64,000 nt of DNA, taken from the NCBI GenBank assembly GCA_963769215.1, contig CAVYKX010000019.1:93314-157313 (forward strand), written 5' to 3'. Shown piece after piece: positions 12,929 to 63,608 of the stretch. The position numbers and the translations under genes are program-made. How positions within the stretch are numbered: position 1 is the first letter of the stretch; each line of letters begins with the position of its first letter. The notes under the pieces were generated by a model, which was given only the letters and a program-made list of their open reading frames with translations, had not been told where the DNA came from and did no database searches. Origin of the DNA: Candidatus Sulfomarinibacteraceae bacterium. GTDB lineage: Bacteria > Acidobacteriota > Thermoanaerobaculia > Thermoanaerobaculales > Sulfomarinibacteraceae.

Positions 12929-13064
12929 TACGGTGTGCAGATCATAGCATCGCCAACCGATCTGCGGGGTGATTGTGTCCCGGGCTCAACTTGGCGCGAG
13001 CCGGCATTCCGCGTATCCTCGTTGGCATGAAGTATCTGCACCGTCTTCCGATTGGATCACCGCT

Positions 13065-14274
13065 GTGAAACGGCTGCGTCTGCTCACGGGAGGCGAATCG
13101 CACGGACCGGGTTTGACGGCGATCCTCGAGGGTCTCCCTGCCGGACTCGAGCTCGACCGTGAGCGAGATCGACGGCCGGCTGGCGCGCCGCCAGCACGGC
13201 TTCGGACGAGGTGGGCGCCAGCGCATCGAAAAAGATGTGGTCACCGTAACGGGTGGTCTGCGCGACGGCCGCACCCTGGGCGGTCCGCTCGTGCTCGAGG
13301 TAACGAACCTCGACTGGAAAAATTGGGCCGATGTGATGGATCCGTGGCAGGTGGATGCCGAGGTTGCGGCCAAGAGAGCGGTCACCCGGCCGCGTCCGGG
13401 ACACGCCGACTACTCCGGCGGAGCCGCTACCGACCAGTTGGCGGACATGCGCAATGTGCTCGAACGCTCGTCGGCGCGGGAGACCGCGGCGCGGGTCGCG
13501 GCGGGCGCGGTGTGCGGCCAGCTGTTGAGCCGTTACGGCGTCTCCATGCGGTCGGCGGTGTTGCGGGTCGGTCCGCACGAAGTGCTTGCGGGCGCCCCGT
13601 CGTGGAACGAGCTGAAAGGTGTGCGCTTTGATTCCCCGCTGGTGACCCCGAAACCGGATCACGAGGAACCGATTGTCGAGGCGATCCGCGAGGCACGCCA
13701 GGCGGGGGAGACCATGGGCGGCATCGTGGGTGCGGTGGTTCGCGGCCTTCCCCCCGGTCTCGGCTCCTACGCCCATTGGGACCGAAAGCTGGACGGCCGG
13801 CTGGCGCAGGCCCTGACATCCATTCACTCGGTCAAAGCGGCGGCGATCGGTGACGGCATCGAGGTTGCTTCGCTGCTGGGGTCGCAGGCCCACGACCCCT
13901 ACGAGCTCGTCGACGGACGACTCGAACGGACCGGCAACCGGGCGGGTGGGCTCGAAGGCGGGGTCACGAACGGGGCCGATCTCGTGGTCCGTGCCTTTTT
14001 CAAACCGATCTCGACGCTCCGCCGGGGGCTGCCGTCGGTCGATCTTTCCACCGGCGAACCCGGAGCGACCGAGTGGGAACGCTCCGACGTGACGGCCATC
14101 GGCGCAGCGCCGGTGATTGTCGAAGCCATGTTGGCGCTGATCCTCGGTGACGCTCTGCTCGAGAAGCTCGGCGGCGACGCGATCGCCGACACGGACGCGG
14201 CGTGGAAAGCGCTGGCCGAACGGCTTGCACCGTGGTGGACGCCGGCACGAGGAATTCTCAATTTTGAATTTTGA
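13065..14274 (+). CDS. aroC: Chorismate synthase; frame break near 13153
   Basis: A GTG at 13065 gives VKRLRLLTGGESHGPGLTAILEGLPAGLEL (in the frame of ORF 12969..13631). This joins ORF 13159..14274 (LARRQHGFGRGGRQRIEKD..., SARETAARVAAGAV, GGLEGGVTNG). The last about 7 codons and the stop are encoded by repeat E3. Confidence 0.9.
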
Positions 14275-14353
14275 ATTTTGAATTTCCGCCTGCCCTCCCG
14301 AAGAACGTGGTGGAGGGGACCATTGAGAATTGAGAATTAAAAACCGAGAATTC
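14252..14353. repeat. Intergenic hairpin repeat E3: (GAATTTT)n - CCGCCTGCCCTCCC - loop - GGTGGAGGGG - (GAGAATT)n
   Basis: Read directly. Overlaps the aroC stop codon (14272-14274). Confidence 0.75.
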
Positions 14354-14397
14354 AATCTCCTGTTTCCCTGCGGTACGTTAACCTATGGCGATGGCCA

Positions 14398-16271: not shown

Positions 16272-16344
16272 TGGCGGGCCCTGAAGGACCCGCCTACACG
16301 TGTATTCGGTTTTCTCCTCTAGGCGGGTCCTTCAGGGCCCGCCA
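16272..16344. repeat. 25-bp perfect inverted repeat TGGCGGGCCCTGAAGGACCCGCCTA (16272-16296 / 16320-16344), 23-nt spacer
   Basis: Read directly. Each arm is itself a near-palindrome (GGCGGGCCC/GGACCCGCC). Confidence 0.8.
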
Positions 16345-19704: not shown

Positions 19705-19811
19705 AGAATTCGGAATTCGGAATTCGGATTTCGGATTTTTCCCCCACCCGCCCGCTGTCGATCATGGGGGGAGGGCGGAAATTCCGAAATCCGAAATTCC
19801 GAATTCCAAAA

Positions 19812-19812
<1 letters not shown>
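19705..19812. repeat. Hairpin repeat E6 filling the carA-carB spacer: (GAATTCG/GGATTTC)n - CCCCCACCCGCCC - GCTGTCGATCAT - GGGGGGAGGGCGG - (AAATTCC/GAAATCC)n
   Basis: Read directly. The arms are about 80% complementary by hand alignment. The right arm abuts the carA stop codon (19812-19814). Confidence 0.8.
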
Positions 19813-20999
<1,187 letters not shown>

Positions 21000-21004
21000 A
21001 CCGT

Positions 21005-21126
21005 CCCCCAACCCGCCCATTTCGGATTTGCGGATTTTGGATTTCGGATTTCCCCCCAACCCGCCCGCGATCGACCATGGGGGGTTGGGCGGGAAATCCG
21101 AAATCCGAAATCCGAAATCCGAAATT
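21005..21126. repeat. Hairpin repeat E7: CCCCCAACCCGCCC - (GGATTTY)n - CCCCCCAACCCGCCC - GCGATCGACCAT - GGGGGGTTGGGCGGG - (AAATCCG)n
   Basis: Read directly. Lies between the divergent carA and ECF-sigma genes. Its core and loop are nearly identical to those of E6. Confidence 0.8.
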
Positions 21127-24454: not shown

Positions 24455-24558
24455 AATTTTGAATTTTCAATTCTGAATTTTGAATTCCCAACCACCCCTC
24501 CCGGGAAATGGGGCGGATGGGCGGGAATTCAAAATTCAGAATTCAAAATTGAAAATTC
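24455..24558. repeat. Hairpin repeat E9: (GAATTTT/CAATTCT)n - CCCAACCACCCCTCCC - GGGAAAT - GGGGCGGATGGGCGGG - (AATTCAAA/AATTCAGA)n
   Basis: Read directly. Starts 25 nt after the S9 peptidase stop. Confidence 0.8.
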
Positions 24559-28518: not shown

Positions 28519-28635
<117 letters not shown>

Positions 28636-30041: not shown

Positions 30042-32333
30042 ATGGCTGAATGGCGTCAGCAATTCGACGATCTTCGGCAGCGTCGGCCTGATCTCGCAGA
30101 CCGCGTGTGCCGCCGGCTGCTGATGGACCTTCAGCGCAAGGGCTTGGTGGACCTCGACGCGCTCGACGAATTGGCCGAAGCCCTCAAGCTTGGCGGGGCG
30201 AGGCCCAAGTACGACCCCAACCGTCCCAAACCCCAGCAGAGCAGCCAATCGCGAAAGCAGCTCTACGATCTCGCCCTCGAGTACGCCGAGCGCCACATGA
30301 AACCGGAGAAGATCTCCGCGACCATTCTCCTGGTCGAAAAGAGAATGCTGGCGCACGACAGCGCTCGTCTCGCCGAGGACCTCGATACCCCGTTGCCGGA
30401 GCTGCGCCAGAAGATCCACGATTTTCTCGATTTCGCTCCGGGGCAGGTGGTGGCGCCGCGCGAGGATCTCATCGGCACCCGGGCCGCCCTGGTCCGGCGG
30501 CTGCTGACCGACCAGCTCGATTTCATCTCTGTCGCCAAACGCTTCATTCGGGTTCGCGAGTTCGCCGAGGTGCTCGACCACATCATCCCCACCGACGGCG
30601 GCCACGGCCGTCTCGGAGGCAAGGCCGCCGGTCTGATCCTGGCTCACGCCATCCTCTTCAAGGCCAAGCGGAGAGGACGGTTCGAGGGCGAGTACAAGGT
30701 CCCGACATCGTACTTTCTGCCCTCCAACGGCATCCTCGAGTTCATCGAGTACAACGGCCTCGAAGAGCTGATCAACGTCAAGTACAAGACCCCGGAAGAG
30801 GTGCGCGACGAGTACCCGTTGGTGGAAAGGCTCTTCAAGTCGTCGGAGTTTTCGCCGACGGTCCACAAAGGCCTCGGCGAGATGCTCTACCAGCTCGGCG
30901 AGGTGCCGTTGGTGGTGCGGTCGTCGAGCCTGCTCGAAGACCGGATCGGCCACGCGTTCTCGGGCAAGTACAAGAGCCTGTTCATCCCCAATCGCGGGCC
31001 CCTCGAAATGCGGCTTGCGCAGCTCGAGGACGCGGTTGCCGAGGTCTACGCCTCGATCTTCCACCCCGACCCCATCGAGTACCGGCGCGAGCGCGGGCTG
31101 ATCGACTTCCAGGAGCAGATGGGTGTGCTCATCCAGGAGGTGGTGGGGCGCGAGGTGGGCGGCATGCTCTTCCCGGTCTTTGCCGGAGTCGGGTTCTCAC
31201 GCTGTGAGATGCGGTGGTCTCCCCGAATCCGCCACACCGACGGTATGGCGCGCCTGGTGCTCGGTCTCGGGACCCGAGCCGTCGACCGGACTGTCGACGA
31301 CTACCCTGTGCTGGTGGCTCTCGAACAGCCGGCCCTGCGCTCGGTGCAGCAGCCGGACGAGGTCTATCGCTACTCGCAATCAGAGGTCGACGTGGTGGAT
31401 CTCCGCGAGAGCCAGTTCGAGTCGTTGCCTCTGGACGATTTCATGACCCGGGTCGGGCGCAAGATCCCCAATATGAACCGGGTCTTCTCGATTTACCGCG
31501 ACCGGCAGATCCTGCCGATGGTCGGGGTGATGGCGCAGGTCGATCCGCGCGAGTTGGTGGTGACCTTCGACGGACTGCTGCGTTCGGGCTTCCCGCGCCA
31601 GCTCAAGGCGATGCTCGATCTGCTGGAGGAGGGGCTCGGCGAGCCGGTCGACGTCGAGTTCGCACACGATGGGGACGACTTTTACATGCTGCAGTGCCGC
31701 GCACTCAGCCGCGGCGCGATGGCGCAGCGGGCCGAGATCCCGGACGTGGCCGATGACCACAAGGTCTTCTCGGCCGACCGCTATGTACAGATGGGCCAGG
31801 TGCGGGATCTGGAGTACGTCGTCCTGGTCGAACCGCGCGACTACGAGAGCCTCGGAAGCCGTGAGGAAATGCAGCGGGTTGCGCGCGCCGTGGGTGCAGT
31901 CAACAAAAAGCTGCCGGCGAAACGATTCCTCATGATGGGCCCCGGCCGCTGGGGCAGCCGCGGCGACATCAGGCTCGGCGTCCCCGTCACCTACGCGGAT
32001 ATCTCCCGCACCGCGATCCTGGTGGAGATCGCACGCAAGAAGGGCTCATACGTTCCCGACGTGTCCTTCGGCACCCACTTCTTCAACGATCTCGTGGAGT
32101 CCGGCATCCACTACCTTCCGCTCTACCCGGATGACGAAGGCGTGGTGTGGAACGGGGAGTTCCTCGAACAATCCGCCAATTGCCTGGCCGAGATCGTTCC
32201 TGATTTCGCTGACATGGAGAAAGTGGTGCGGGTCATCCGGGTCGCCGACGCCGCCGACGGAAAACTCCTCCAGGTCATCATGGATGCCGAGGACGACAAA
32301 GCGCTGGGCTTCCTTGCGGAACCCCAGCAATAA
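30042..32333 (+). CDS. PEP-utilising enzyme family protein (PEP/pyruvate-binding PPDK_N-type domain)
   Basis: Intact 763-aa ORF with GGKAAGLILAH, VVRSSSLLEDRIGHAFSGKYKSLF and MGVLIQEVV, which are typical of pyruvate,water/phosphate dikinase N-domains. Confidence 0.7.
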   Translation: MAEWRQQFDDLRQRRPDLADRVCRRLLMDLQRKGLVDLDALDELAEALKLGGARPKYDPNRPKPQQSSQSRKQLYDLALEYAERHMKPEKISATILLVEKRMLAHDSARLAEDLDTPLPELRQKIHDFLDFAPGQVVAPREDLIGTRAALVRRLLTDQLDFISVAKRFIRVREFAEVLDHIIPTDGGHGRLGGKAAGLILAHAILFKAKRRGRFEGEYKVPTSYFLPSNGILEFIEYNGLEELINVKYKTPEEVRDEYPLVERLFKSSEFSPTVHKGLGEMLYQLGEVPLVVRSSSLLEDRIGHAFSGKYKSLFIPNRGPLEMRLAQLEDAVAEVYASIFHPDPIEYRRERGLIDFQEQMGVLIQEVVGREVGGMLFPVFAGVGFSRCEMRWSPRIRHTDGMARLVLGLGTRAVDRTVDDYPVLVALEQPALRSVQQPDEVYRYSQSEVDVVDLRESQFESLPLDDFMTRVGRKIPNMNRVFSIYRDRQILPMVGVMAQVDPRELVVTFDGLLRSGFPRQLKAMLDLLEEGLGEPVDVEFAHDGDDFYMLQCRALSRGAMAQRAEIPDVADDHKVFSADRYVQMGQVRDLEYVVLVEPRDYESLGSREEMQRVARAVGAVNKKLPAKRFLMMGPGRWGSRGDIRLGVPVTYADISRTAILVEIARKKGSYVPDVSFGTHFFNDLVESGIHYLPLYPDDEGVVWNGEFLEQSANCLAEIVPDFADMEKVVRVIRVADAADGKLLQVIMDAEDDKALGFLAEPQQ

Positions 32334-32440
32334 TTCTCAATTTTGAATTTTGAATTTTGAATTCCCACCCACCCCCCGCCCACAATCCAGCGCTCTGGGT
32401 GGGTGGGAATTCCGAATTCCGAATTCCGACTGCGAATTCG
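32334..32440. repeat. Hairpin repeat E11: (GAATTTT)n - CCCACCCACCCCCCGCCC - loop - GGGTGGGTGGG - (AATTCCG)n
   Basis: Read directly. Occupies the whole gap between two convergent genes (stops at 32333 and 32445). Its arms use different heptads that still pair apart from periodic U-C and U-G positions. Confidence 0.8.
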
Positions 32441-35208: not shown

Positions 35209-35330
35209 CCCGCATTCCCCATTCCCGATCCGGGTGGGCGGGAACTCAAAACTCAGAACTCAAAACTCAGAACTCAAAACTCAAAACTGCATCATGTGGG
35301 TGGGTGGGCGGCATTCCTCATTCCTAATTC
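35209..35330. repeat. Composite repeat E12: (CATTCC)n - core GGGTGGGCGGG (35232-35242) - (AACTCARA)n array - core GGGTGGGTGGGCGG (35298-35311) - (CATTCCT)n
   Basis: Read directly. Lies 55 nt upstream of tRNA-Arg. Confidence 0.8.
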
Positions 35331-35384
35331 ACCCCCGGGCTTGCGTTGAAAACTCCCTTGTGGCAAAATGCGCCTCCTTGAGCT

Positions 35385-35461
35385 GCGCCGATAGCTCAAT
35401 TGGATAGAGCATCTGACTACGGATCAGAAGGTTGGGGATTCGAGTTCCTCTCGGCGCGCCA
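35385..35461 (+). tRNA. tRNA-Arg (anticodon ACG), CCA encoded
   Basis: Manual cloverleaf. Acceptor stem GCGCCGA/TCGGCGC. D arm GCTC-AATTGGATA-GAGC. Anticodon arm TCTGA-CTACGGA-TCAGA. Variable loop AGGTT. T arm GGGGA-TTCGAGT-TCCTC. Discriminator G followed by CCA. Confidence 0.9.
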
Positions 35462-35497
35462 TTTTTCATTCGAACTGTCAGTTCGAATGAAAAATGG
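35459..35497 (+). terminator. Perfect 19-bp-arm palindrome CCATTTTTCATTCGAACTG-T-CAGTTCGAATGAAAAATGG overlapping the tRNA CCA end
   Basis: Read directly. Plausible tRNA terminator or element-end structure. There is no long U tail. Confidence 0.5.
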
Positions 35498-35686
35498 TCG
35501 CGGCGAAGCTGCCTTGCAGCGAAGCCGGACACGTCGCTTCCAATCGCCTGCCACCGTGCAGGCGTTTCTCGTTTCAGCGCGTTGTGCCGCCCCCGGTGGC
35601 GCCGCGTCTCGCCGGAACCGGTGGGTGATCGTAAGCCGTGAAGAGGAACTGATTTCTATCGGAGGAGTTTCCCCAGGCCGGCCGGA

Positions 35687-36001
35687 CTATTTGCTGTTGG
35701 TTTGCTCTGCCAGGGATTCGTCGATCAGACTGTGGCTTTCGAAGACGGTGAGGACGACGATGGTGCTCTCGTCGGGTTGGTACACGATGCGGTAGTTGCC
35801 GAGAATCACTTCGCGGAGATCGGATCGACCGAACTCAGGGACGATGCGACCCGAAGTCGGGAACAGTGCGGTGCGCTCGACCGCATCCAAAATCTCCCCG
35901 ACCAACTTCGATGCCGCGCCCGGTTTGTCACGAGCGATGAAGTCGCCGATCTCGAGGAGGTCACGACGAGCCCGTTTCGACCACAGAATCGCAGTCTTCA
36001 T
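35687..36001 (-). CDS. Type II toxin, ParE/RelE superfamily
   Basis: Intact 104-aa ORF (WSKRARRDLLEIGDFIARD...IVYQPDESTIVVLTVFESH). Its start overlaps the upstream antitoxin stop by 4 nt. Confidence 0.75.
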   Translation of the reverse strand: MKTAILWSKRARRDLLEIGDFIARDKPGAASKLVGEILDAVERTALFPTSGRIVPEFGRSDLREVILGNYRIVYQPDESTIVVLTVFESHSLIDESLAEQTNSK

Positions 36002-36285
36002 TCCTCGTCGCCGTATCGGGTATGGACCTCGGCGACCAGACTTTCGTGCGTGACGACCCTGCCCGAACGGGTGTCGTCGAGCCCCTCCGCGACCGCATTA
36101 GCGAAACGGAGACGCTCGGTCAAGGCGTCGAACTCGGCAGGGGAGAGCAGAACACCGGCGGCGCGGCCGTTCTGAGTGATGACCATGGGTGCCCCGGTCT
36201 CGGCGAGCCTCTTCAGCAGTTCCGAAGCTCGGGTCTTGAATTCACTCAGCGGAACGATGTCTTCGGCGACTCGAAGATTCGGCAT
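35998..36285 (-). CDS. Type II antitoxin, Phd/YefM family
   Basis: Intact 95-aa ORF (VPLSEFKTRASELLKRLAETGAPMVITQNGRAAGVLLSPAEFDAL). Confidence 0.75.
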   Translation of the reverse strand: MPNLRVAEDIVPLSEFKTRASELLKRLAETGAPMVITQNGRAAGVLLSPAEFDALTERLRFANAVAEGLDDTRSGRVVTHESLVAEVHTRYGDEE

Positions 36286-36338
36286 GGGGCCTCCTGGAGT
36301 CTAAATATAGTCTTTATAAAGTCTTTTTTCAAGACTGA

Positions 36339-36577
36339 ATCAGGTCCGAATGGCCAAGTGCGGCCAAGGTCCGCGTACCGGATGACGGCCCCGGGCCGCG
36401 GCTGCGATCGGTGGATGTCTTCCGAGGCATCACGATCGTCGCGATGATTCTGGTGAACAACCCGGGTGATCCAAAATCGACCTACTGGCCGCTGCTGCAC
36501 GCCGAGTGGCACGGCTGGACCCCGACGGACCTGGTCTTCCCCTTCTTCCTCTTCATCGTTGGCGTCGCGATCGGAAG
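36339..36577 (+). pseudogene. 5' fragment (about 75 codons) of a DUF1624/DUF5009-type acyltransferase (heparan-alpha-glucosaminide N-acetyltransferase-like) gene
   Basis: ...[60 protein letters not shown] matches the N-terminus of an about 370-aa membrane-protein family. Similarity stops exactly where the 26-bp inverted repeat begins (36579). Confidence 0.6.
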
Positions 36578-36578
36578 G

Positions 36579-36650
36579 GTGCCAGGTATGCGCTTTGTGC
36601 GCATCCCGTTCATCCCACCGGAAGATGCGCATAAAGCGCATACCTGGCAC
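36579..36650. repeat. 26-bp inverted repeat GTGCCAGGTATGCGCTTTGTGCGCAT / ATGCGCATAAAGCGCATACCTGGCAC (1 mismatch), 20-nt spacer
   Basis: Read directly. Sits at the truncation point of the acyltransferase fragment, 80 nt upstream of STK1. Confidence 0.8.
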
Positions 36651-36729
36651 CCACCCGAAGCCGGACACCCCGTTTCATACGTCTGCCACCGCGCAGGCGT
36701 TTCTGTTTCTGTGGTGATGCTGCGGTATC

Positions 36730-39429
36730 ATGGCCGAGCAGGTAAACCGGACAATGCGAGACCTCATCGGTCGCACCCTGGGCCGCTACCGTATCGTCGA
36801 GAAGATCGGTGCAGGTGGAATGGGCGAGGTCTTCCGCGCCCACGACGAACGACTCGATCGGGATGTTGCGATCAAGGTATTGCCTGCGGAGGTGGCCCAA
36901 ACCCGTGACCGCCTGGATCGGTTCGAACGTGAGGCGAGGGCGGTGGCCAAACTCGACCATCCAAACATCCTCGCCATCCACGATTTCGGCACGGATCAAG
37001 GAGTTACCTACGCCGTCACCGAGTTGTTGGATGGTCAGAACCTCAGGCAGTCAATCCCGGCCTCCGGCATGCCGTGGCAAAAGGCGGTGGAGATCGGAGC
37101 GGCCATTGCCGATGGTCTCGCCGCAGCACACGGCAAGGGGATCGTTCACCGCGACCTCAAACCCGAGAACATCTTTCTCACCGCCGATGGGCGAATAAAG
37201 ATTCTGGACTTTGGGCTCGCCCAGGTGAAGGTGCCGGTAGAGGAGGAAGCCGAGACCGCGACCCTCACCCCAGCCGGAACGATTCCGGGGACCGTCATGG
37301 GAACCATGGGCTACATGTCGCCGGAGCAGCTTCGCGGCCAGACGGTCGACGCGCGGTCCGACATACTTGCCCTCGGCTGCGTGCTCTACGAGATGTTGGG
37401 GGGTGTGGCGGCCTTCCGTCGTGGGACGACCGCTGAGATCTCCGCCGCCATCCTCAAAGAGGACCCTCGTGCACTGACGGATTCAGGGATACTGTTACCG
37501 TCAGAGCTCGATCGGACTGTCCGTCGCTGTCTCGAAAAAAGTGCTGAAGCCAGGTTTCAGTCAGCCTCCGATCTCGCCTATGATCTCCGCGCCAATTCTA
37601 CCGCGCCAGCGCCCGTGGCCACTCGCGACGTACCTCACGCCGGTGACCGGAGGAAAGCGATCGCGGGGACCGCCATCGGATTCGTCATCGTGGTCGCCGT
37701 CGTGTTGACGGTCATTCTGAGCGGACCGCTCCGGCGACAGCCGGCCGCACCTCAACCGGAGTTCTCGCCGAATCGAGTCGCCGTGGTGCAGATGGAGAAC
37801 CGGACCGGGGATCCCTCGCTCGATACTGTGGGCATCTTAGCGGCTGACGCGATCGTGCAGCGGTTCACCGAATCTGCTGCCGCCGAAGTAGTGCTGCTGC
37901 TGGATGCGTTGGAGGAGGCTCTATCCACGGAACGGGACAGGGACCAGAGGCGGGGGACGGCCTACCTCCTCGAGCGCGCCCGCCAGCGGGGCGCAGGTCT
38001 GGTGCTTTCCGGTGCATACTACCTGGACGGTGACACCCTGCGGCTGCAGGCGCGCCTCGTCGACGTCGCCACTGGTGATCTGATCCACGCATTCCAACAG
38101 GTGGGCGCAACAAGAGACGCGGTTGCTGACGGCATCGACTCGCTCAGCGACCGGCTTCTGGCGGGGGTGGCGGCGCACGTCGCCCACTACGATTTCGACA
38201 TAGCCGTCATGAGACCCCCTTCCACCTACGAGGCTTACCAGGCCTACCGCCAGGGCGATGAGTTGTTCGGCCCCAACTGGCCAGGGGCCATCGTGCACTA
38301 TCGGCGAGCCTTGGGAATCGACCAGGACTTTCACTTGGCGCGGATACAGCTTGTGTGGTCGCATATCAACATCGACGACTACGAAGGGGCGAGGAATGAA
38401 CATTCGGTCCTGGAGAAGCAACTCGACCGGATGACCCTGTACGAGCGGACCTACGTCCAGTATCAGAAGGCTTTTCTGGAGTGGGATCGCTCAGGTGCGT
38501 TGAACGCGCTCCGTCGTATGCAGGAGCTTGCACCGCAGATACCATGGCATCCACAAGAAATCGCGTTTCGTGCGCTCGAACTGAATCGTCCCAGGGAGGC
38601 CGTCGAAGCGCTTGAGCCCAGCATCGATCGCCCCCATTTCGATTCGGGTGCCGTCCCACAATGGCCCCTCATGAAGATGACATCGGCCCAGCACATGCTT
38701 GGGGACTACGAGCGCGAGCTCGAGTACGCGGGGCTCGGTTTGAAACGCTTTCCAGGCCTCGCCAACTTTTTTTTTGCCAAGGCGCGAGCGCTGGCGGCGA
38801 TGGGGCGGACCGAGTTGGTCGACGAGGTCATCGATGAGTTCCTTCGTGTCCAGACACGCGGCGGGTCGCCTGGGGGACTGATGAGCGCGACTGCCTCGGA
38901 GTTTCGAGCCCACGGCCACCACGAGGCAGCCGATGAGATGGCGGTCCGGTCGGTGAAGTGGTACGAAACCCATCCTTCGGCGCTCCCGGAGGAAAGTGGG
39001 TCCGTCGCCACCGAGTTGTGGATGATTGGCTACCCAGATGAGAGGAAATCCCTTGCCAACGCACTGTGGATAGTCGGGCGCTGGCACGACATCGGCAACC
39101 TCATCGTACGGCCGATCGATACCGGACCGAGCGAGTACAAGTTGGCTGGATGGCTTGGAGTCATCGCCGCCATCAAGGGCGATGACGACCTGGCGGTGCA
39201 GGTTTCTGATGACCTGCCAGTGAGCGACAGCCCGCGAGCGGTTGCTTGGGGGAGGTATTGGCAAGCCTGCATCGCGGCTCATCTCGGAGAAAAGGAGAGG
39301 GCAGTCGAGCTCCTCGCCGAGGCATTCTCCAAGGGCTACCCATTCAGTGTCCTCCTTCACAGCTCCATGGACTTCGAACCCCTCTGGGACTACCCGCCGT
39401 TTGAGGAGCTAATCGAACCGAAGGGATGA
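36730..39429 (+). CDS. Ser/Thr protein kinase with TM segment and large C-terminal TPR/helical-repeat region (STK1)
   Basis: Intact 899-aa ORF with [30 protein letters not shown] and GYMSPEQ. A TM segment ([21 protein letters not shown]) is followed by a helical-repeat tail. Confidence 0.9.
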
Positions 39430-39613
39430 CGGCTGGATCGGCACCACCGTCTCCATGGTGCACTCCTGGTGCACTTGAACTCAACAATCGAGTATTCCAG
39501 GCAACAACCGACCACACAACGAGGCCACCCGAACGGCCCGTAAGTCCTCGTAACTCTTGTTGTTGAGTGTTGTATGATGTCGTAAGTTGTTATTATGTAT
39601 AAGCTTACGATCG

Positions 39614-39662
39614 GACTACGGATCAGAAGGTTGGGGATTCGAGTTCCTCTCGGCGCGCCATT
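39614..39662 (+). repeat. Direct repeat of the 3' part of tRNA-Arg (49/49 nt identical to 35415-35463); putative att site
   Basis: GACTACGGATCAGAAGGTTGGGGATTCGAGTTCCTCTCGGCGCGCCATT occurs at both places. The second copy lacks the 5' half of the tRNA. It is preceded by an AT-rich stretch (39560-39613) that is unusual for this genome. Confidence 0.85.
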
Positions 39663-39743
39663 AAAATCAATGACTTACGGCTATCGTTGCGGTGGCTTTC
39701 TTTCTGCTGTCACAGAACTGTCGCAGGTGTGAGCGATGTCGGT

Positions 39744-41684
39744 TTATTCACGCGGTTTCGGGACCGCTCTTCTCGGGTTCAAGTGGGCCGAGAGAATTCC
39801 CTCAATGGGATTCCCCTCTTGATCACGGGCGGGGTCGAACTCCCACTCTTCGAAAAACGCCTGCAACTCCGGGAGCGCGAGTCCCGAGCTCATCTCACCG
39901 CCATAACCTCGCTTGATTCCGTAAACCCTGCCGGTGCTGCTGATCACAGCTTGCATGGACACGGCTGTGGTGATCCCTGTCGGATTCTCGCACCAGGGAA
40001 ACGATTCGGGCGTGAGGATGGGCCGAGGGGACCCGGTTTTTTCAGCTGAACCAGACCGAAGTGAAGTCCCAGCGTTGAAACGAATTTCCAGGTCGCAGTG
40101 AGCATATCGAAGAAAGCGCCACCCTGATCCCGATGTGGGTACCGGAGCCCTTGTTCGCGCTATCCGGACTGTGGGGGCCTCACCAAAAACCAATTCGCCG
40201 TCACTGAACAGGTCCCAAGTACTTCGAAGCCAATCGAACAAAAACTTTTCTCGAGCCCAACTCCCGATATCGAACACAGGATCCCCATATCGAATCGTGA
40301 CGGAATCCGCCGCGACAAGAACCTCCGCTTCAGGGAAACTCACGGGACCCGCGCCGCCGAAAAGCGGTTGGTCGGCACACGGTTCGAGGAGGGCGGCCTC
40401 GATCCCGAGGTTCGCGCCGATGGGCTCGGTACGAATCAGCCATCTTTCGCGATCGTTCCCATTCGGCTGAGGATAGGAGTGTTCGATACAGGGCAGCGAA
40501 AATTCGACTACCCGTACCTCGCCCTTTTTCCAAAGCACCGATCCTGTCGCTGAAGCCCTCGCGAGGAGCATCTCCTCAGACCATCGAAAGGTCTCGACTT
40601 CCGCCACTTCCGGCCACTCCTTCCGATAGTGATCAACCCAGAACCCAAATTTGCCGCGCGGATGATTCTCGACATTATTCCGAACCCACCACGACGATCC
40701 GCCCTGAAATCCGAACTGCGGAAGCAAGATCGCACCCTCGGCCCTCGAACGATCATTGAGGCCTAGAAATCTCGAGGCGCCATGGTTGGTTGGGGACTCG
40801 GCCATCAGAGCCTTCAACCCCTGGACGACAACCGTCGCCGCATACGGCTGATAGCCGATTTCACGCGCCCTGGCGGCGAGCACCGCCAGGCCATCCAAAT
40901 TCTCAACGTCGTGTCGAGCCGGTCGGTGGTTCACCTGCCACTCAAACGAGCCCCGTGTCTCCCCCCCGTTCCAGCAAACCCATGAGCGTACAGGGACCTC
41001 GAACCAGAGCTCACCGCCTCGAAACTCCCACCCGGGCTTGATACTTGCTTGCGCACTGGCAAAATCACCCGGTGAACAGGGGGACAAATCTCGTGTTTCC
41101 AACATTGAGTTGCGTAAGAACCTGACCTCCGGATCGATCTGCACGACGATCCACCGGGTTTCAATCACCGCACCTCGCCAATGGTCGCGGGTGTGTTTAC
41201 ACACGATGGCCAGGAGCACCTTCGAACCATCTTCGATAACCTTGATATCCGTCACATCGACCGGTGACTGCAGCGGAATGATCTCCTCGTCCTTGAGACC
41301 GCGTTTCGGCTCGAGGGACACGATCAGCTCATAGCCCGAATGGGGCTGATCGGAGGTTTCGCGCCGACTTTCATTCTCCGAAATCTCTGCCTCGGATGGT
41401 CCACGCTGATGGATCTGAAAGCCGAGCCAACGGCCCTCGGTTGTCCGAACGTGATAGACGCCACCTTGATTCTCCGACTGCTTGACCTCCAACTCCGCGC
41501 CCGAAAGGAACGGAGGTGTGAAAGCCATCGTCGTACAGATCGCGCAGATGCTCATCACAGAAGCCCCGGTGCTCTGCCACGCCTCCATATGAACCTCCCG
41601 ACGATCAATGGTATCGAAGCATTGTGCAAATGATGTGTCGAAAATGTCGCAAATCCAAGCCGGAATCATTCGGAATGCGTGCAA
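39744..41684 (-). CDS. Hypothetical protein (646 aa in the ORF track; start uncertain because the 41684 codon is TTG) with a possible TonB_C-like C-terminal domain
   Basis: Intact long ORF with clearly lower GC (50-60% in two hand-counted 100-nt samples). The C-terminal about 70 aa (ITTAVSMQAVISSTGRVYGIKRGYGG...LQAFFEEWEFDPARDQEGNPIEGI) resemble the TonB C-terminal pattern by eye. No other recognisable motifs were found. Confidence 0.55.
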   Translation of the reverse strand: MHAFRMIPAWICDIFDTSFAQCFDTIDRREVHMEAWQSTGASVMSICAICTTMAFTPPFLSGAELEVKQSENQGGVYHVRTTEGRWLGFQIHQRGPSEAEISENESRRETSDQPHSGYELIVSLEPKRGLKDEEIIPLQSPVDVTDIKVIEDGSKVLLAIVCKHTRDHWRGAVIETRWIVVQIDPEVRFLRNSMLETRDLSPCSPGDFASAQASIKPGWEFRGGELWFEVPVRSWVCWNGGETRGSFEWQVNHRPARHDVENLDGLAVLAARAREIGYQPYAATVVVQGLKALMAESPTNHGASRFLGLNDRSRAEGAILLPQFGFQGGSSWWVRNNVENHPRGKFGFWVDHYRKEWPEVAEVETFRWSEEMLLARASATGSVLWKKGEVRVVEFSLPCIEHSYPQPNGNDRERWLIRTEPIGANLGIEAALLEPCADQPLFGGAGPVSFPEAEVLVAADSVTIRYGDPVFDIGSWAREKFLFDWLRSTWDLFSDGELVFGEAPTVRIARTRAPVPTSGSGWRFLRYAHCDLEIRFNAGTSLRSGSAEKTGSPRPILTPESFPWCENPTGITTAVSMQAVISSTGRVYGIKRGYGGEMSSGLALPELQAFFEEWEFDPARDQEGNPIEGILSAHLNPRRAVPKPRE

Positions 41685-41692
41685 GGTCCGCA

Positions 41693-41748
41693 GTTCTGAC
41701 TGATGACCATGGGTGCCCCGGTTTGGTCGAGTCTCTTCAGCAGTTCCG
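41693..41748 (-). pseudogene. 56-nt fragment of a second Phd/YefM antitoxin gene (about 91% identical to 36169-36224)
   Basis: Hand alignment gives 51/56 identical nt. It encodes ...ELLKRLDQTGAPMVISQN versus ...ELLKRLAETGAPMVITQN. No start codon, no C-terminus and no cognate toxin are present. Confidence 0.7.
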
Positions 41749-41833
41749 CTATGTCGGGAAGCGCGATGTGCGAGAAGCGCGGCGGAACGTCGCGATATAC
41801 CGGCCGCAGCAGATCCTTGGTGAGATCAGCGGG

Positions 41834-45069: not shown

Positions 45070-45567
45070 TTGAACTCAGGTCATGAGGGACAACGCACGG
45101 GCAGACAACCGCAGCGGCATAGGATGACGCTCGCTCAGTTCATTCGTCGGCGAAACGGTGTGCCTGCGGGAGCTTCCGGCTCGCTCCGGAACATGTTGCA
45201 GCGCTCTCTGGGGGCAGGTTCATTCGCCGGGTTCTGGCAGTACTGGAATCCTGTCTTCGGATACGGATTGGGGAGGTACGTGTACTCGCCGTTGAAGCGA
45301 GTGGTGCCGCCTGCGGTCGCACTGGTGATGACCTTTGTAGTCTGCGGCGCCCTTCATGATCTGGTGACGATTGCGATTCGAGGATCCGCGACATTTTTCT
45401 TCACGCCGTGGTTTTTCCTCTTGGCCGTCGGAGTGCTGCTCGGGCGGGCAGCAGGGATGGATCTTTCAGGCAGGCCGTGGCTGGTCCGAGCAGGCGTCAA
45501 TTTCAGCTATATCACGGTCTGCCTTGGCCTGACCCTCGTCGTGCGGCGAGTGTTCGCGATTCCGTAG
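45070..45567 (+). CDS. Small membrane protein resembling the C-terminal part of MBOAT_2-type O-acyltransferases (likely start at ATG 45124)
   Basis: FAGFWQYWNPVFGYGLGRYVYSPLKR...FVVCGALHDLV resembles the FW(R)RWN...Y.PL...H motif region of the family. Only about 150 aa are present, so it may be a fragment. Confidence 0.45.
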   Translation: MNSGHEGQRTGRQPQRHRMTLAQFIRRRNGVPAGASGSLRNMLQRSLGAGSFAGFWQYWNPVFGYGLGRYVYSPLKRVVPPAVALVMTFVVCGALHDLVTIAIRGSATFFFTPWFFLLAVGVLLGRAAGMDLSGRPWLVRAGVNFSYITVCLGLTLVVRRVFAIP

Positions 45568-45965: not shown

Positions 45966-48900
45966 ATGCGAGAATTGGTCGGTCGCTCCCTGGGCAACTA
46001 CCGCATCGTCGAGAAGATCGGCGAGGGCGGGATGGGGGAGGTCTACCGGGCTCGCGACGCGCGCCTCGATCGGGACGTGGCGATCAAGGTGCTGCCGGCA
46101 TCGGTGGCCCGGGACGCAGGGCGCATCGCGCGTTTCGAGCGCGAGGCCAGGGCGGTTGCCAGGCTTACCCACCCGAACATCCTACAGATCTTCGAATTTG
46201 GCGAGGACGAGGACGTGACCTACGCGGTCATGGAGATCCTCGAGGGCGAGACGCTGCAAGAGCGGATGGGGCGAGGTCGGCTGCAGTGGCGGGAGGTTGT
46301 GAAGTTCGGTGCCGCGATCGCCGAGGGCGTCGCGGCCGCTCATGGCGAGGGAATCATCCACCGCGACCTCAAGCCGGGGAACGTCTTCCTCACAGCCGAT
46401 GGCCGGGTCAAGGTGCTGGACTTCGGGCTCGCGAAGATCGACGAGGGACCGATCGAGGAGCTGGAGACCATGACCTCACCGCCTCCCGAGACGGCAGTCG
46501 GCACGATGCTCGGCACCGTCGAATACATGGCGCCGGAGCAGGTGCGGGGCGAGAAGCTCGATGAGCGCGCAGATCTCTTTTCCCTGGGGGTCGTGCTCTA
46601 CGAGATGGCAACCGGCAAGCGTCCGTTCGAGGGAGCGACATCGGGGGCCATCCTCGGATCGATCCTCAGCCGGGAGCCGGCGGCCGCCTCGTCGATCAAC
46701 CCTGACCTGCCGGGGGAGCTGGGACGGATCATCGACCGGCTGCTTCAGAAGGAGCGGAGCTCGCGTTACCAGACGGCCAAAGAGCTGTTGGATGAGCTGA
46801 GGCGTGTCGAACGGGATTCAGAGCCTCGACAGGCGGTCGAGACTCCCGTGGCCACTTCCCTGTCCGGCGGTCGGTTCAGTTTTCTGCAGCTCGCGGCTGC
46901 GGCCGCCGTTATCGCTGTGATCGCGCTCAGCCTCTGGCTCACCCTGGGCCGCGAGGGCGTCATGCGCGCCGGCGCCGCGGGGGGTGCTCAAAATGTCATC
47001 GCGGTCATGCCCTTCACCGTGCGCGGCGGCGACGAGGTCGCCTACCTCGGCTCCGGCATGGTCGATTTGCTGAGCGTGAAGCTCGACGGGGCGGGGAGCT
47101 TCACCACCGTCGACCCACACGCAGTCATTCGGGTCGTGGGCTCCGAGGCCGGCGTGATCGATCCCGGCCGGGCCGCAAGCCTGTGCGCCGATCTCGGTGC
47201 CGGGTTGTTCGTGCTCGGCAGCATCGTCGAGGCCGGTGGCCAGCTCCAGGTGTCGGCCTCGCTCTACGGTTCGGACGAGGGTGTCGAAGCCGTTTCCCAG
47301 GGCTCGGCTGAGGGCGCGGTGGACGAGGTCTTCGCCCTGGTCGACGCGGTCGCGGCGCAGCTCCTGGTCGGGCTGAGCGGCGGGCCGGAGGCGCGGGTGC
47401 ACCGCGTGGCCGGCGTCACGACCGAGTCGCTGCCGGCCCTCAAAGCCTACCTGGAAGGAGAGGAGGCCTATCGCGGCGGAGAGTACGCGGCCTCCCTCGA
47501 ACACTTCGAACGCGCGGTCGCCATCGACCCCGAGTTCGCTTTGGCCTACTACCGCATCAGCACCGCCGCCGAGTGGGCCTGGGACGAGAGGCAGATTTAT
47601 GCCGCGGCAGAGCGGGCGGTCGAGCTGGCGGACCGCCTGCCGGAACGAGAGCGCAGGCTGGTAGAGGTCCTGGGAGTGCGCCGGCGGGAGGCGAACGAGG
47701 ATGCAGAGTCCGTTCTCCGCTCGTTCCTCGGGGTCTACCCGAACGACCTCGAGGCCTGGGTGAATCTCGGCGAGCTCGTCAACCACACTCGTCCCATGCA
47801 CGGGCGCTCTTTCCTGGAGGCGCGCGAGGTGTGGGAGCGGGTCCTGAGCATCGACGAGGCCCACACGGGCGCCCTGCTGCACGTCATGCGGATGGACGCG
47901 TTCGAGGGCAAGCTGGAGAGCATGGACACCGGGCTGCGCCGCTTCCACGAGCTGTACCCGAAGGCGGATCGCAGCATCGAGATGGACATCCTTTCGCTGG
48001 CGACGCACGGAAATCCTGAGAGCGAAGCGAAGGCGCTGGAACTTCTGGCCAACGCCTCAGACGTCGATTTGTTGATGGGTGTGTGGAACGCGGCGGTCTA
48101 TGCGCAGCAACTACGATCTCTCCATCAAGCTCTGCGAGATGATGGTCGGCCCCGACCACTCGGTGGCCGTGCGACGGACCGCCTACTCATGGCTCGCGAG
48201 CCTCCAGTATGCGAAGGGGCGATTGGGAGCCATGCGGCAGGCACTGGATTCGCTGGCAGAGGTGGACGCCCTCGCCGGGGCGGAGTACCGCCCGGTGTTC
48301 CTGGGGCTGCCATTCGTGCAGGCCTCCGCCTCGGAGCTGGACTCGGCCTACGCGGATCTGGAGGGACAGCTCATTCCGGAGCCGAAGGAAGGGCCGCAGC
48401 TGATCATAGCTGCCCACGACAACCTGCACCCGCTTCTGCAGGAGTTCGGCTTGGGCAGGCTCGCAGTGTTGCGAGGTGAAAATGAGGTCGTGCGCACGCA
48501 AGCAGAGTTGCTCGCAGCCATGCGGCCCGAGGCCGACCACGAGGGCCTCGCCCAGGATCTCGCTATCGCCTTGCGCGGCTACCTGGCCCTCGCTGCAGAG
48601 CAATCGGAGGCTGCCCTGGAGTACTTCGAGGCCATGAAGATGAGCGCCTGGCACGGCCAGTCGTTGTTCTCTCCCTTTTATGCCCGGACCGCCGAGCGAT
48701 TTGCCCGGGCTGAGGCATTGGAGCTCAGTGGGCGCGGCGACGAGGCGCTCAACTGGTACGAACACCTGGCGGAGAACTCGCCCTTCGAGGTGGCCTACGT
48801 CCCACCCTCGTTGGTTCGTCGGGCCGAGATTCACGCCGAGCGTGGCGAGAACGAACTCGCCATCGATCTCTACCGCGACTTCATCCGGTTATGGGGGGAA

Positions 48901-60764: not shown

Positions 60765-61244
60765 ATGGTCGACGACAATCTGGGCTTTTTCCGAGTTGAA
60801 ATCGAAATGGCGCTCGAGGGTGTGGTGGAAATCGACGCCGATGACGAGGGCTCTGTGAAAATGGCGAATGGGTACTACCAGCTCTTCGGCGTAACGGGAT
60901 CGAGCTATGCCGAAGCGGTGGCCTTTGTCGAGAATGCCCTCGCCGAGATCGTGACGGCCGAAACTCAGGCCCCCGGGTGGCTGGTCCAGCTGCAGGTCGA
61001 CACCTGGAGCGAGCCCGCCTCAGACGAGGAGGGGGAATTCCTTCAAGACCCCTCGTCGCGCGGGGTGCACTTCATTTCCGACCGCGCGTATTTTCTGGCG
61101 CTCGACGAACCGGATGACCTGACATATCCCTCCCATCGGTGCCAGGGAAAACAAAGCCGGCAGACGCGACCGTTCAACTTGAGACCTTCCAACGATAAAA
61201 GGGTCTGGTCTGGGTTACCATTGTGGCCGAGAACCCGACAATGA
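60765..61244 (+). CDS. Hypothetical small acidic protein directly upstream of, and overlapping, STK3
   Basis: 159-aa ORF with a GGAGG RBS. A truncated paralogue lies at 44838. No family recognised. Confidence 0.4.
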
Positions 61245-63608
61245 AGGACCTCATCGGTCGCACGCTCGGCCGCTACCGCATCGTCGAGAAGATCGGCGCA
61301 GGCGGGATGGGTGTGGTCTACCGAGCCCGCGACGAACGGCTCGATCGAGATGTCGCGATCAAAGTGCTGCCGCGAGGAGGTCGCGAGACGCCGATCGGGT
61401 CGCCCGGTTCAAGCGCGAGGCCAGGCCGTCGCCCAGCTCGACCACCCGAACATCCTCGCGATCCACGACTTCGGAACCGACGAGGGGGTGAGCTACGCCG
61501 TGACCGAGCTCCTCGAGGGCAACAATCTCCGCGAGGGAATTCCGGCCTGGGGAATCGGTGGCAGAAGGCGGTCGAGATCGGCTCCGCGGTCGCCGAAGGG
61601 CTGGCCGCAGCGCACGGCACGGACATCGTCCACCGAGACCTCAAACCCGAGAACATCTTCCTCACCACGGACGGGCGCGTCAAGATCCTCGACTTCGGTT
61701 TGGCCCAGATGAGAGAACGGTCGACGAGGATGCCGAGACGCTCACGATCACACCGGCCGGCACCGTGGCCGGGACCGTCATGGGCACCGTCGGATACATG
61801 GCCCCGGAGCAGGTGAAGGGTGAGCCGTCCGACGCCCGGTCCGACATCTTCGCTTCGGGTGCCTGCTGTACGAGATGGTGTCGGGGCAGCAGGCCTTCCG
61901 GCGCAACAGCACCGCCGAGATCCAGGCGGCGATCCTCAAGGAGGAGCCGCCGTCGCTGACGTCCTCGGCGTCGCCCTCCCGCCGAGCTCGAGCGGACGAT
62001 CCGGCGCTGCCTCGAGAAGACTCCGGAAGCGCGTTTCCAGTCGGCTTCCGACCTCGCCTATAACCTCAAGTCGATCTCGACCGACCAGGCCGTTCCGGTG
62101 GCGGCACCGGCAGAAGCGAACAAGAAATGCTCGTGACGGTGCTGCCGCCGTAGTGGGTCGTGGCGGTGGTCGCCATTCTCCTGGTCACTGGGAAATTCGG
62201 TTTCGATCGGTCGGGCCGGACCAGCCCGCGATTCGCTCGATCGCGATCCTTCCCCTGCAGAACCTGACCGGCGACCCGGAGCAGGCCTACTTCGTCGACG
62301 GCCTGCACGAGGAGCTGATCGCCACCTTCGCCCAGATTTCCGCCTTCGACAAAGTGATTGCTCGTACCTCGGTGCTGGCATTCAGGGACTCCGGTACTCC
62401 GGTTCGTGAGATCGGCAGACAGCTCGGGGTTGATCTGGTCGTCGAAGGGTCGGTGCGGCGCTCCGGAAACACGGTGCGCACGACCGTGCAGCTGATCGAC
62501 GCGAGACCGAGAACCACCTGTGGGCAACAGCTTCGAGCGCGACCTCACCGATATCCTGGCGCTGCAGAGTGACGTTGCCCGGGCGGTCGCTAACGAGGTC
62601 GAGCTGGCGCTGACGCCCGAGGACAAGGCACGCCTCGCAAGTGCCCCCCAGGTCAATCCCGAGGCCTATGAGGCCTATCTCAAGGGCATGTCTCACCTGT
62701 ACAAGCTGACTCCACCGGATCTCGATGCCGCGCTGCACTACTTCGAACAATCTCTGGAAAACGATCCCGATTATGCTCTTGGGCTATGCAGGGGTATCGT
62801 TCGTCTGGGTCGGCCGCCAACAAATGGGATTGGTCATCCCCAGCGAAGCGACGCCGAAAGCGAAGGCGGCGGCACAGAGGGCCCTCGAACTGGATGACAC
62901 GCTGCCGGAGGTTCACTACACGTGGGCTGCCATCAAAACATGGAGCGACTGGGACTGGGAGGGAGGAGAGCAGGAATTCAAGCGGGCCCTCGAACTCAAA
63001 CCGAACTTTGCGGAAGCGCTCGTGTACTACTCGCACCTGTTGTGTTACATGGGTCGTCTGGATGAAGCGCTGGAAATGGCAGAGAGAGCCGTACAGCTGG
63101 ATCCGCTCAACTCGATCATCCTGACGATCTCTGGAGTCACCTTCGGGTACCTGGGCCGTTATGACGAAGCCATCGAGCGGCACAAACAGGCCCTCAGGAC
63201 ATCACCCAATGATCCCGTAGCTCATAATTCGCTCTGGGAAACCTATTACAAAAAGGGAATGTATGAGGAATCTCTGAATTCAGCCAAAGCGTTTTTCACA
63301 GGACTGGGCTTGAATGAGATCGCGGAAGTCATGGCACAGGGATATGAGGAAGATGGCTACGGTGGGGCGATGATGTCCGCAGCCGAGACCATGGAGGCGT
63401 TTTCGAAGCAGACCTATTTTTCACCCACGTTCATTGCCATGATCTATGCCTTGGCTGGGGATCGCGAGAAAACCATCGAATGGCTCGAGATGGGATATGA
63501 AATGAAAGACCCCAACATGCCGTATGCTGGGTTCATTCTTTCGATCTCCTGGACGATGACCCGCGGTACCAGGACCTGCTCCGGCGGATGAACCTCCCGG
63601 ACGACTGA
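61223..63608 (+). pseudogene. Ser/Thr protein kinase + TM + TolB-N-like + TPR region (STK3), at least 8 frame breaks; kinase domain closely paralogous to STK1
   Basis: Pieced together from ORFs 61223, 61311, 61558, 61875, 61820, 62520 and 62725 and a final shift to ...DDPRYQDLLRRMNLPDD* (63608). Kinase motifs [24 protein letters not shown] and GYMAPEQ are present, as is IAILPLQNLTGDPEQAYFVDGLHEELI. Confidence 0.75.

Follow-up and report, generated by a model that had tools for sequence, protein, structure and literature searches.

An integrase-less islet in a tRNA-Arg gene of a Sulfomarinibacteraceae bacterium, probably the decayed remnant of a site-specific integration

How does a piece of DNA come to lie in a tRNA gene if no recombinase gene accompanies it? 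This question is raised by a locus of the marine Candidatus Sulfomarinibacteraceae bacterium (Acidobacteriota; Thermoanaerobaculia), contained in a stretch of 64,000 nucleotides (GenBank assembly GCA_963769215.1, contig CAVYKX010000019.1, positions 93,314 to 157,313) which is called the window in the following. Here an islet of 4.2 kb (35464-39609) separates a tRNA-Arg gene from a second copy of its own 3' half. Comparison with related loci suggests that the islet is probably a foreign circle that was integrated site-specifically at tRNA-Arg and is now a non-autonomous remnant similar to a cis-mobilizable element (CIME), mosaic as a result of tandem accretion and deletion.

The tRNA-Arg(ACG) gene at 35385-35461 on the plus strand is intact (ARAGORN; Rfam tRNA, 65.8 bits) and is the sole tRNA called by ARAGORN in the window. 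Its 3' part belongs to a core of 53 nt, comprising the sequence from the anticodon stem to two nucleotides behind the CCA end, which occurs at 35411-35463 as part of the presumed left attachment site (attL) and again at 39610-39662 in the right one (attR). Both copies lie on the plus strand, so that the displaced 3' fragment has the same orientation as the intact gene. They are identical in 52/53 positions (98 %) with a single T/G mismatch at 35414/39613, and 49 nt are exact; the repeat had been described in these terms in an initial annotation of the window, and ARAGORN, Rfam and a repeat search all agree with it. The first bases of the repeat lie in the anticodon stem (5' strand), and from two nucleotides before the anticodon loop onward the match is perfect. 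A 32-mer of the core finds two matches in the window at three or fewer mismatches, compared to none in 100 shuffled sequences, and no third copy was detected there by short-word BLAST with the whole tRNA. Upstream of 39610 there is no tRNA 5' half, the number of matching bases (6/26) being at chance level. The tRNA-Arg gene is chromosomal in its 5' part and owes its 3' part to the islet.

Public data contain all four types of junction, namely the occupied left and right sides, the empty site and the joined form. The comparison included the window, two JGI contigs (L005 and L001, the latter of 4811 bp), a metagenome-assembled genome (MAG) of the Thermoanaerobaculia (L006) and an ENA contig from a k141 assembly (L015). 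The empty site is represented by L005, which shows 94.6 % identity to the window in the ATP-binding cassette (ABC) ATPase gene left of the tRNA and whose tRNA-Arg is identical in the alignment. In this contig the tRNA gene is directly abutted by TTCAAATCAAGCACTT... and a canonical terminator. The flank aligns to 39661-39720 of the window with a score of 11-12, as opposed to 3.0-3.3 ± 1.5-1.6 for shuffled sequences (reached by 3/2000 shuffles over 80 nt, 3/2000 over 20 nt and 0/2000 over 50 nt), and does not align to the sequence after the tRNA of the window. The homologous segment 39663-39707 (plus strand), containing a terminator-like hairpin with a T run at 39679-39697 (plus strand), is the original chromosomal sequence downstream of the tRNA. 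L006 shares an exact 41-mer of the core and is 88 % identical to 35313-35462 (tRNA and upstream sequence) and 78 % identical in the ABC genes; its tRNA is followed by unrelated DNA and the islet is absent. The initial annotation had proposed to look for tRNA-Arg running directly into a homologue of 39663 onward, as is now found in L005, and it would have doubted an integration if the DNA between the repeats did not vary among genomes. Presence and absence of the islet do differ in L005.

These data bear on the simplest alternative, according to which the repeat is left over from a tandem tRNA array or a local segmental duplication and nothing was ever inserted. Tandem arrays with deletion remnants in between are indeed formed by the kinase genes of the family to which the islet kinase belongs. 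However, the 5' half upstream of 39610 that had been named as the mark of a decayed array is missing, the left side of the second core copy is a conserved arm which in the related locus L002 also stands next to another core, and the attR flank directly follows the tRNA in L005, by which the alternative is refuted unless L005 represents a secondary deletion. It must be regarded as extremely unlikely.

The two ends of the islet carry distinct features. On the left, a perfect palindrome with 19-bp arms (35459-35477/35479-35497; repeat search; fold of -30.9 kcal/mol, z = -9.5) abuts the CCA end, as had been noticed initially. Together with the window there are four contexts of such a hairpin, since it is found in the same place in L001, L015 and L002, with different sequences and the pairing kept (z = -5.3 to -8.1); it is not present after the tRNA of L005 and L006. 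On the right, an AT-rich arm (39488-39609, plus strand) adjoins the core and contains CGTAAGT at 39539 and 39581 and CTTACG at 39604. The GC content is 0.33 in 39560-39613, the AT-rich tract of the initial annotation, and 0.36 in 39540-39609 versus 0.63 in the whole window, and four of the nine CGTAAG/CTTACG hexamers in the window fall in 39539-39679. The arm is 98.9 % identical to that of L001, 97 % to that of L015 and 73 % to that of L002, where the positions of the hexamers are nevertheless maintained. Such features would be expected of the P arm of a phage-type attachment site (attP), for which the arm is a candidate. It is preceded by the motif CCATGGTGCACTCCTGGTGCACTTGAACTCAACAA (39453-39487, plus strand), consisting of two TGGTGCAC repeats 11 nt apart and unique in the window. 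The motif lies downstream of the islet kinase gene and next to the arm; in relatives it is mostly found about 60 nt upstream of kinase genes (twice in L002, in L008 and in one L003 copy) or about 210 nt upstream of them (second L003 copy and L004). The respective positions are 386, 5240 and 8006 in L002, 2512 and 14608 in L003, 78 in L004 and 6759 in L008. In the diverged arm of L002 both repeats of the motif are jointly changed to TGGGACAC. An 18-mer of the kinase-associated motif matched three phage contigs of IMG/VR, which share nothing else with the window and were treated as unrelated.

The joined form, in which arm, core and hairpin are contiguous, was found in L001 and L015. L001 has 99.5 % DNA identity to 36702-39662, including kinase gene, arm and core. 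Behind the core it continues with the hairpin and the first part of a short module X, the stretch corresponding to 35411-35534 being 93.5 % identical, and then with an IS91-type gene truncated at its 5' end; the similarity of L001 to the window breaks at 35534 and 36702, which are the edges of X and of a second copy of this module, X'. In L015 a spermine-synthase-like gene and a kinase gene reduced to a short 3' remnant are followed by motif and arm, core, hairpin, X and the genes for a ParE toxin and a Phd antitoxin, with 97 % identity to 39450-39660 for motif and arm and 87 % to 35411-36288 for the part from core to Phd. A tRNA 5' half is found in neither contig. The core of L015 has three substitutions in the T-arm and its hairpin differs from that of the window by paired, compensating changes; therefore, the junction outside a tRNA gene is genuine in this contig and did not arise as an assembly chimera of a window-like genome. 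An exact search with the core 41-mer yielded one contig each in metagenome and genome collections, and core 41-mer, hairpin and arm patterns had no match among the viral contigs of IMG/VR.

An assembly artefact in the window itself would have to consist of an empty chromosome and a separate arm-core-hairpin molecule which were threaded through their shared repeat. L014, an independent assembly of the right flank, does stop inside the repeat, and one single MAG contig accounts for the proteins of the window. On the other hand, two wrong joins would be required, the repeat is short enough to be spanned by ordinary reads, and even such an error would leave an element with an attP for tRNA-Arg, so that this explanation is hardly credible. 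The empty site, the reciprocal junctions and the absent tRNA 5' half, compared across these loci, show that the islet was inserted by recombination at the core. With this, the signature of integration into the 3' half of a tRNA gene, which the initial annotation had recognized in the direct repeat, is supported by independent loci.

Which enzyme could have carried out this recombination? Integrase, excisionase and transposase families were found by Pfam neither in the islet genes nor in ten alternative open reading frames (ORFs) in and around the islet, in accordance with the earlier impression that no such ORF lies between the repeats, and domains of these families were also missing from the scanned ORFs of at least 100 amino acids (aa) across the rest of the window. 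According to the Islander database, islands in tRNA genes regenerate their target and leave a displaced fragment, and anticodon-centred sites account for 2083/3919 islands; only tyrosine-family integrases are known to its authors to target tRNA genes (PMC4383910). The onset of the core at the anticodon loop corresponds to the commonest sublocation for these enzymes. The catalyst would most likely have been a tyrosine integrase whose gene lies elsewhere or was carried by a since-lost part of the element.

Alternatively, no integrase was ever involved and a circle carrying a tRNA-derived stretch of 49 bp was taken up by RecA-dependent homologous recombination. Junctions inside a block of perfect identity would be equally expected in this case, and the repeated block of L002 extends past the tRNA-like sequence, as it would after unequal crossing-over. 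Yet 49 bp are a poor substrate for homologous recombination, the block of identity starts exactly at the anticodon loop, a known integrase sublocation (PMC4383910), and the core is flanked by a conserved AT-rich arm with repeated hexamers as in attP sites. For these reasons homologous recombination is considered very unlikely.

The interior of the islet gives hints to its later history. Behind the left hairpin lies X (35520-35574, plus strand; repeat search) with a terminator-like hairpin at 35545-35564 and a T run. It is followed by the genes for a ParE toxin of 104 aa (35687-36001, minus strand; PF05016, E = 1.3e-19, positions 1-83/89) and a Phd/YefM antitoxin of 95 aa (35998-36285, minus strand; PF02604, E = 4.2e-17, positions 1-69/74). 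The antitoxin gene is located first and overlaps the toxin gene by 4 nt, and both family domains are full-length. A putative sigma-70-like promoter (TTGAAA-17-TATATT; 36304-36332, minus strand) with an AT-rich palindrome is predicted upstream of Phd from the match to the consensus. ParE homologues with 77-88 % identity are located in regions rich in toxin-antitoxin genes. Seven samples (L016-L022, ParE homologues with 77 % identity) contain Phd/ParE in conserved toxin-antitoxin runs together with DUF433/PIN, nucleotidyltransferase and HicA genes, and neither a tRNA nor an integrase was found near these relatives.

The next gene is a pseudogene, namely the N-terminal fragment of an HGSNAT/DUF5009-type acyltransferase (36390-36578, plus strand), which matches positions 1-58/222 of HGSNAT_cat with E = 1.9e-4, just below the curated cut-off. 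Its frame breaks exactly at the start of an inverted repeat of 88 nt with arms of 35 nt (36571-36658; fold of -71.3 kcal/mol, z = -13), of which no copy exists in the other loci compared. Next comes X', a copy of X with about 84 % identity (36656-36709, plus strand; repeat search), which also possesses a terminator-like hairpin (36679-36700) and a T run. The last gene encodes a Hanks-type Ser/Thr kinase of 899 aa with a transmembrane segment and a C-terminus resembling tetratricopeptide repeats (TPR) (36730-39429, plus strand; Pfam Pkinase, E = 1.4e-45). Cargo of this composition, a ParE/Phd pair, a truncated acyltransferase gene and a kinase, had been read from the translations before and is borne out by Pfam. 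X is likewise found behind the hairpin of L015, and part of it behind that of L001. X' shares 93.8 % identity with the only X of L015, to which the first X of the window is less similar. A piece of X of 28 nt is present upstream of the tRNA in L005. That X might be a genome-wide interspersed repeat was rejected, as the window contains two copies only, both inside the islet. The interior of the islet is thus made up of two or more modules.

From these observations the following course of events can be proposed. The islet would have entered as a circle whose attP, in which the AT-rich arm was followed by a copied tRNA 3' half and then by the hairpin, recombined site-specifically with the anticodon-loop region of tRNA-Arg(ACG) in an insertion of the Campbell type. 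The chromosomal site (attB) would have consisted of the tRNA and the old flank, attL would now comprise tRNA 5' half, core and hairpin, and attR arm, core and old flank, the joined form being arm, core and hairpin. The tRNA would have been completed by the 3' half borne by the element, and the original 3' half would have been displaced to 39610-39662. Two related elements most likely stood in tandem, one with hairpin, X, ParE/Phd and acyltransferase and the other with hairpin, X', kinase and arm, until an internal deletion fused the left module (hairpin, X, ParE/Phd, acyltransferase stump) to the right one (X', kinase, arm). The islet is read as a remnant because of the pseudogene, the duplication of X and X' and the breakpoints of L001 at the edges of both. 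The ParE/Phd pair probably disfavours the loss of the islet. Renewed movement would be possible only by an integrase of the same specificity acting in trans, or in cis after integration of a neighbouring element.

A tandem arrangement of this kind is displayed by L002. Its sequence runs from a kinase gene over a homologous arm, a core of 85 nt, BrnT/BrnA genes and a helix-turn-helix gene to a kinase gene whose product is 75 % identical to that of the islet, and continues with the diverged arm, a second core copy, a tRNA-like 3' end with CCA, a long hairpin and the start of X. On the evidence of this gene order, L002 shows a tandem of similar integrase-less units directly. Its core (8166-8250 and 12876-13036) may correspond to the 3' half of a tRNA-Lys(UUU) with the anticodon loop CTTTTAA, split in the T loop: about 100 nt are inserted there and a second fragment from T loop to CCA follows. 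Neither Rfam nor ARAGORN calls this core as a tRNA. A tmRNA or another known RNA was considered and dismissed, as Rfam gave no hit at E <= 0.1 and relaxed ARAGORN settings produced only noise.

L002 is also one reason to consider that the islet could still be an active, non-autonomous satellite or cassette-like element with a functional attP, which an unlinked integrase moves in trans and of which tandem copies build up at tRNA genes. In L002, tandem units built alike stand beside a different core, the putative tRNA-Lys(UUU) 3' half. The perfect core of 49 nt, the conservation of the arm at 97-99 % in three gene contexts (window, L001 and L015), the conserved positions of the CGTAAGT/CTTACG repeats in the 73 % identical arm of L002 and the hairpin structure maintained by compensatory changes fit such an element as well. 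Against it, an integrase is seen in none of the loci compared, the T-arm substitutions in the core of L015 would damage the tRNA after integration, the pseudogene and the deletion breakpoints of the interior are typical of decay, and the searches of IMG/VR with core, hairpin and arm remained without a match. An active satellite is accordingly judged unlikely. The initial annotation had offered both possibilities, a decayed island kept by its toxin-antitoxin pair and a satellite mobilised in trans; sequence alone cannot separate the two, and the leaning here is to the decayed, accreted remnant.

A wider generalization is quite doubtful, namely that Thermoanaerobaculia may host a class of small integrase-less units which carry a TPR Ser/Thr kinase along with a toxin-antitoxin pair, are moved in trans by means of a working attP, switch cores between tRNA-Arg and tRNA-Lys and pile up in tandem. 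Their attP would combine the AT-rich arm and its CGTAAGT repeats with a tRNA 3' half and with the hairpin, of which the structure and not the sequence is conserved. If this were true, tandem piling of such units would be one route for the expansion and shuffling of large kinase repertoires.

Several points weigh against the integrated and decayed remnant proposed here. Since no integrase was found, we infer the catalyst and do not see it, and the recombinase search covered 64 kb of a contig of 164.6 kb. The attL junction, from tRNA to hairpin, was seen in the window only. The junction in L001 could in principle be an assembly mis-join, its core being identical to the tRNA, and the joined forms of L001 and L015 may be either circles or junctions inside tandem arrays. 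The hairpin abutting CCA lacks a T run, and it is the X module, 50 nt beyond it, that looks like the real terminator. With a GC content of 0.61 versus 0.63 and a GC3 of 0.73 the islet differs little from the chromosome. Furthermore, that ParE/Phd stabilise the islet is presumed from what is typical of their family. Finally, the kinase family is, by its distribution among relatives, native to and expanded in the lineage, so that the cargo is not obviously foreign.

This distribution is as follows. Kinase proteins with 65-75 % identity occur in contigs of the Thermoanaerobaculia type, and the relatives are annotated as Thermoanaerobaculia, Holophagae or Acidobacteriota. They were found in ordinary chromosomal contexts (L009, L010), in runs of four genes (L007) and in plastic regions that also contain transposase and toxin-antitoxin genes (L002, L008). 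The window contains three further paralogues, at 45966-48479, at 61223-62572 (two ORFs, 61223-61816 and 61820-62572) and from 63611 to its end, so that the suspected chromosomal kinship of the islet kinase proved to be right. Exact look-ups of the window's kinase, ParE and protein P0121 in a contig index gave no match. A function of the kinase as anti-phage defence gene was rejected, as the matches to PD-T4-6 (PADLOC) cover residues 4-331, i.e. the kinase domain only. An MBOAT acyltransferase fragment is located at 45070-45567 upstream of the kinase gene at 45966, and a repeat of 89 nt (86.5 %; 44802-44890/60729-60817) precedes two of the kinase regions.

The surroundings of the islet are of two kinds. 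Core chromosome makes up the left half of the window, with genes for RadA, Mla, DnaB, CarAB and 3-dehydroquinate synthase. The DnaB ORF (5417-6319, minus strand) has only 300 aa, comprising the N-terminal domain and positions 1-96/255 of the C-terminal domain, so that a split, frameshift or interruption of the gene is likely. Right of attR there is a large ORF (39744-41591 or 39744-41684, minus strand; 615-646 aa) in a region whose GC content of 57 % is below that of the flanks. It belongs to no Pfam or PADLOC family and has no homologue beyond its own copies among 5.8 billion clustered proteins. Between this ORFan and a gene for a major facilitator superfamily transporter, a remnant of a Phd-like antitoxin gene is found (41690-41810, minus strand), of which 59 nt (41690-41748) are 90 % identical to the Phd gene of the islet (36166-36224), the similarity ending abruptly on both sides. 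A second islet around the ORFan (39744-41684), bounded by a degenerate third core, was considered, and no such copy was found. The DNA right of attR is also non-core and the sequences after the tRNA differ among the window, L005 and L006; therefore, the tRNA-Arg locus is a hot spot for variable DNA.

Short tandem repeats are located just upstream of tRNA-Arg in three genomes (window 35243-35291; L005 about 1165-1200; L006 about 4040-4075), their units being AACTCAAAACTCAG in the window and GAATTGA- and GAATTCC-like in the two relatives. Upstream of the tRNA in L005 and L006 there are also pieces of a palindromic intergenic repeat of about 75-120 nt, detected in the window by self-BLAST at 14253-14354, 16272-16344, 19706-19813, 21019-21125, 24455-24557, 28519-28635 and 32332-32440; the copies are self-complementary and 72-87 % alike. 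In addition, a direct repeat of 119 nt (83 %; 50651-50769/53717-53835) lies amid ORFs without Pfam families.

Among the known systems, the islet is most readily compared with CIMEs, defined as att-flanked elements without recombination genes, whose accretion model has been reviewed for islands of Streptococcus thermophilus related to the integrative and conjugative elements (ICEs) ICESt1 and ICESt3 (Pavlovic et al. 2004; Bellanger et al. 2011; review PMC5704250). Like them, it is flanked by attL and attR, lacks genes for integration or transfer and shows internal decay, and its relatives display tandem accretion with related elements. The att sites are retained, with a core of 52/53 and with arm and hairpin joined through the core in L001 and L015, and the tandem-type junctions of L001, L015 and L002, as static sequence, are compatible with accretion. 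Marks of decay are present; a parent element, be it an ICE or an integrative and mobilizable element (IME), with genes for an integrase or for conjugation turned up neither in the loci compared nor in IMG/VR. It differs from the streptococcal islands in its host (Acidobacteriota, Thermoanaerobaculia), its tRNA-gene target and the lack of a known parent ICE or IME, and is known from sequence alone.

The regenerated tRNA, the 3' fragment in the same orientation and the block extending from the anticodon loop to the 3' end resemble the class A islands of Islander (Williams 2002; PMC4383910). An intact tRNA with displaced fragment and an empty attB in a relative are both found here; unlike those islands, the islet, very small with its 4.2 kb, has no integrase between tRNA and fragment and thus fails the Islander filter. 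The tandem islands of Dehalococcoides are likewise described with repeated 3' fragments of a small-RNA gene marking an island hot spot, but are reported to be integrated at the tmRNA gene ssrA (PMC3146451).

Integron cassettes and integrative mobile elements exploiting Xer (IMEX) are similar in being non-autonomous, with cargo and a recombination site and the recombinase elsewhere, and chromosomal integron cassette arrays often hold toxin-antitoxin genes. The islet, in contrast, lacks an attC- or dif-like site; its recombination site is formed by the 3' half of a tRNA and an AT-rich arm, and its size far exceeds that of a cassette. It is of a type already known, an integrase-less, att-flanked, CIME-like element in a tRNA gene, and adds no new working principle. 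Its interest lies in offering a completely bounded case of such an element from a phylum that has received little study and is represented mainly by metagenomes. Island finders that demand an integrase gene would miss such elements, and the arrangement of arm, core and hairpin provides a lead to the missing integrase and to a possible shuffling of kinase and toxin-antitoxin genes by site-specific recombination.

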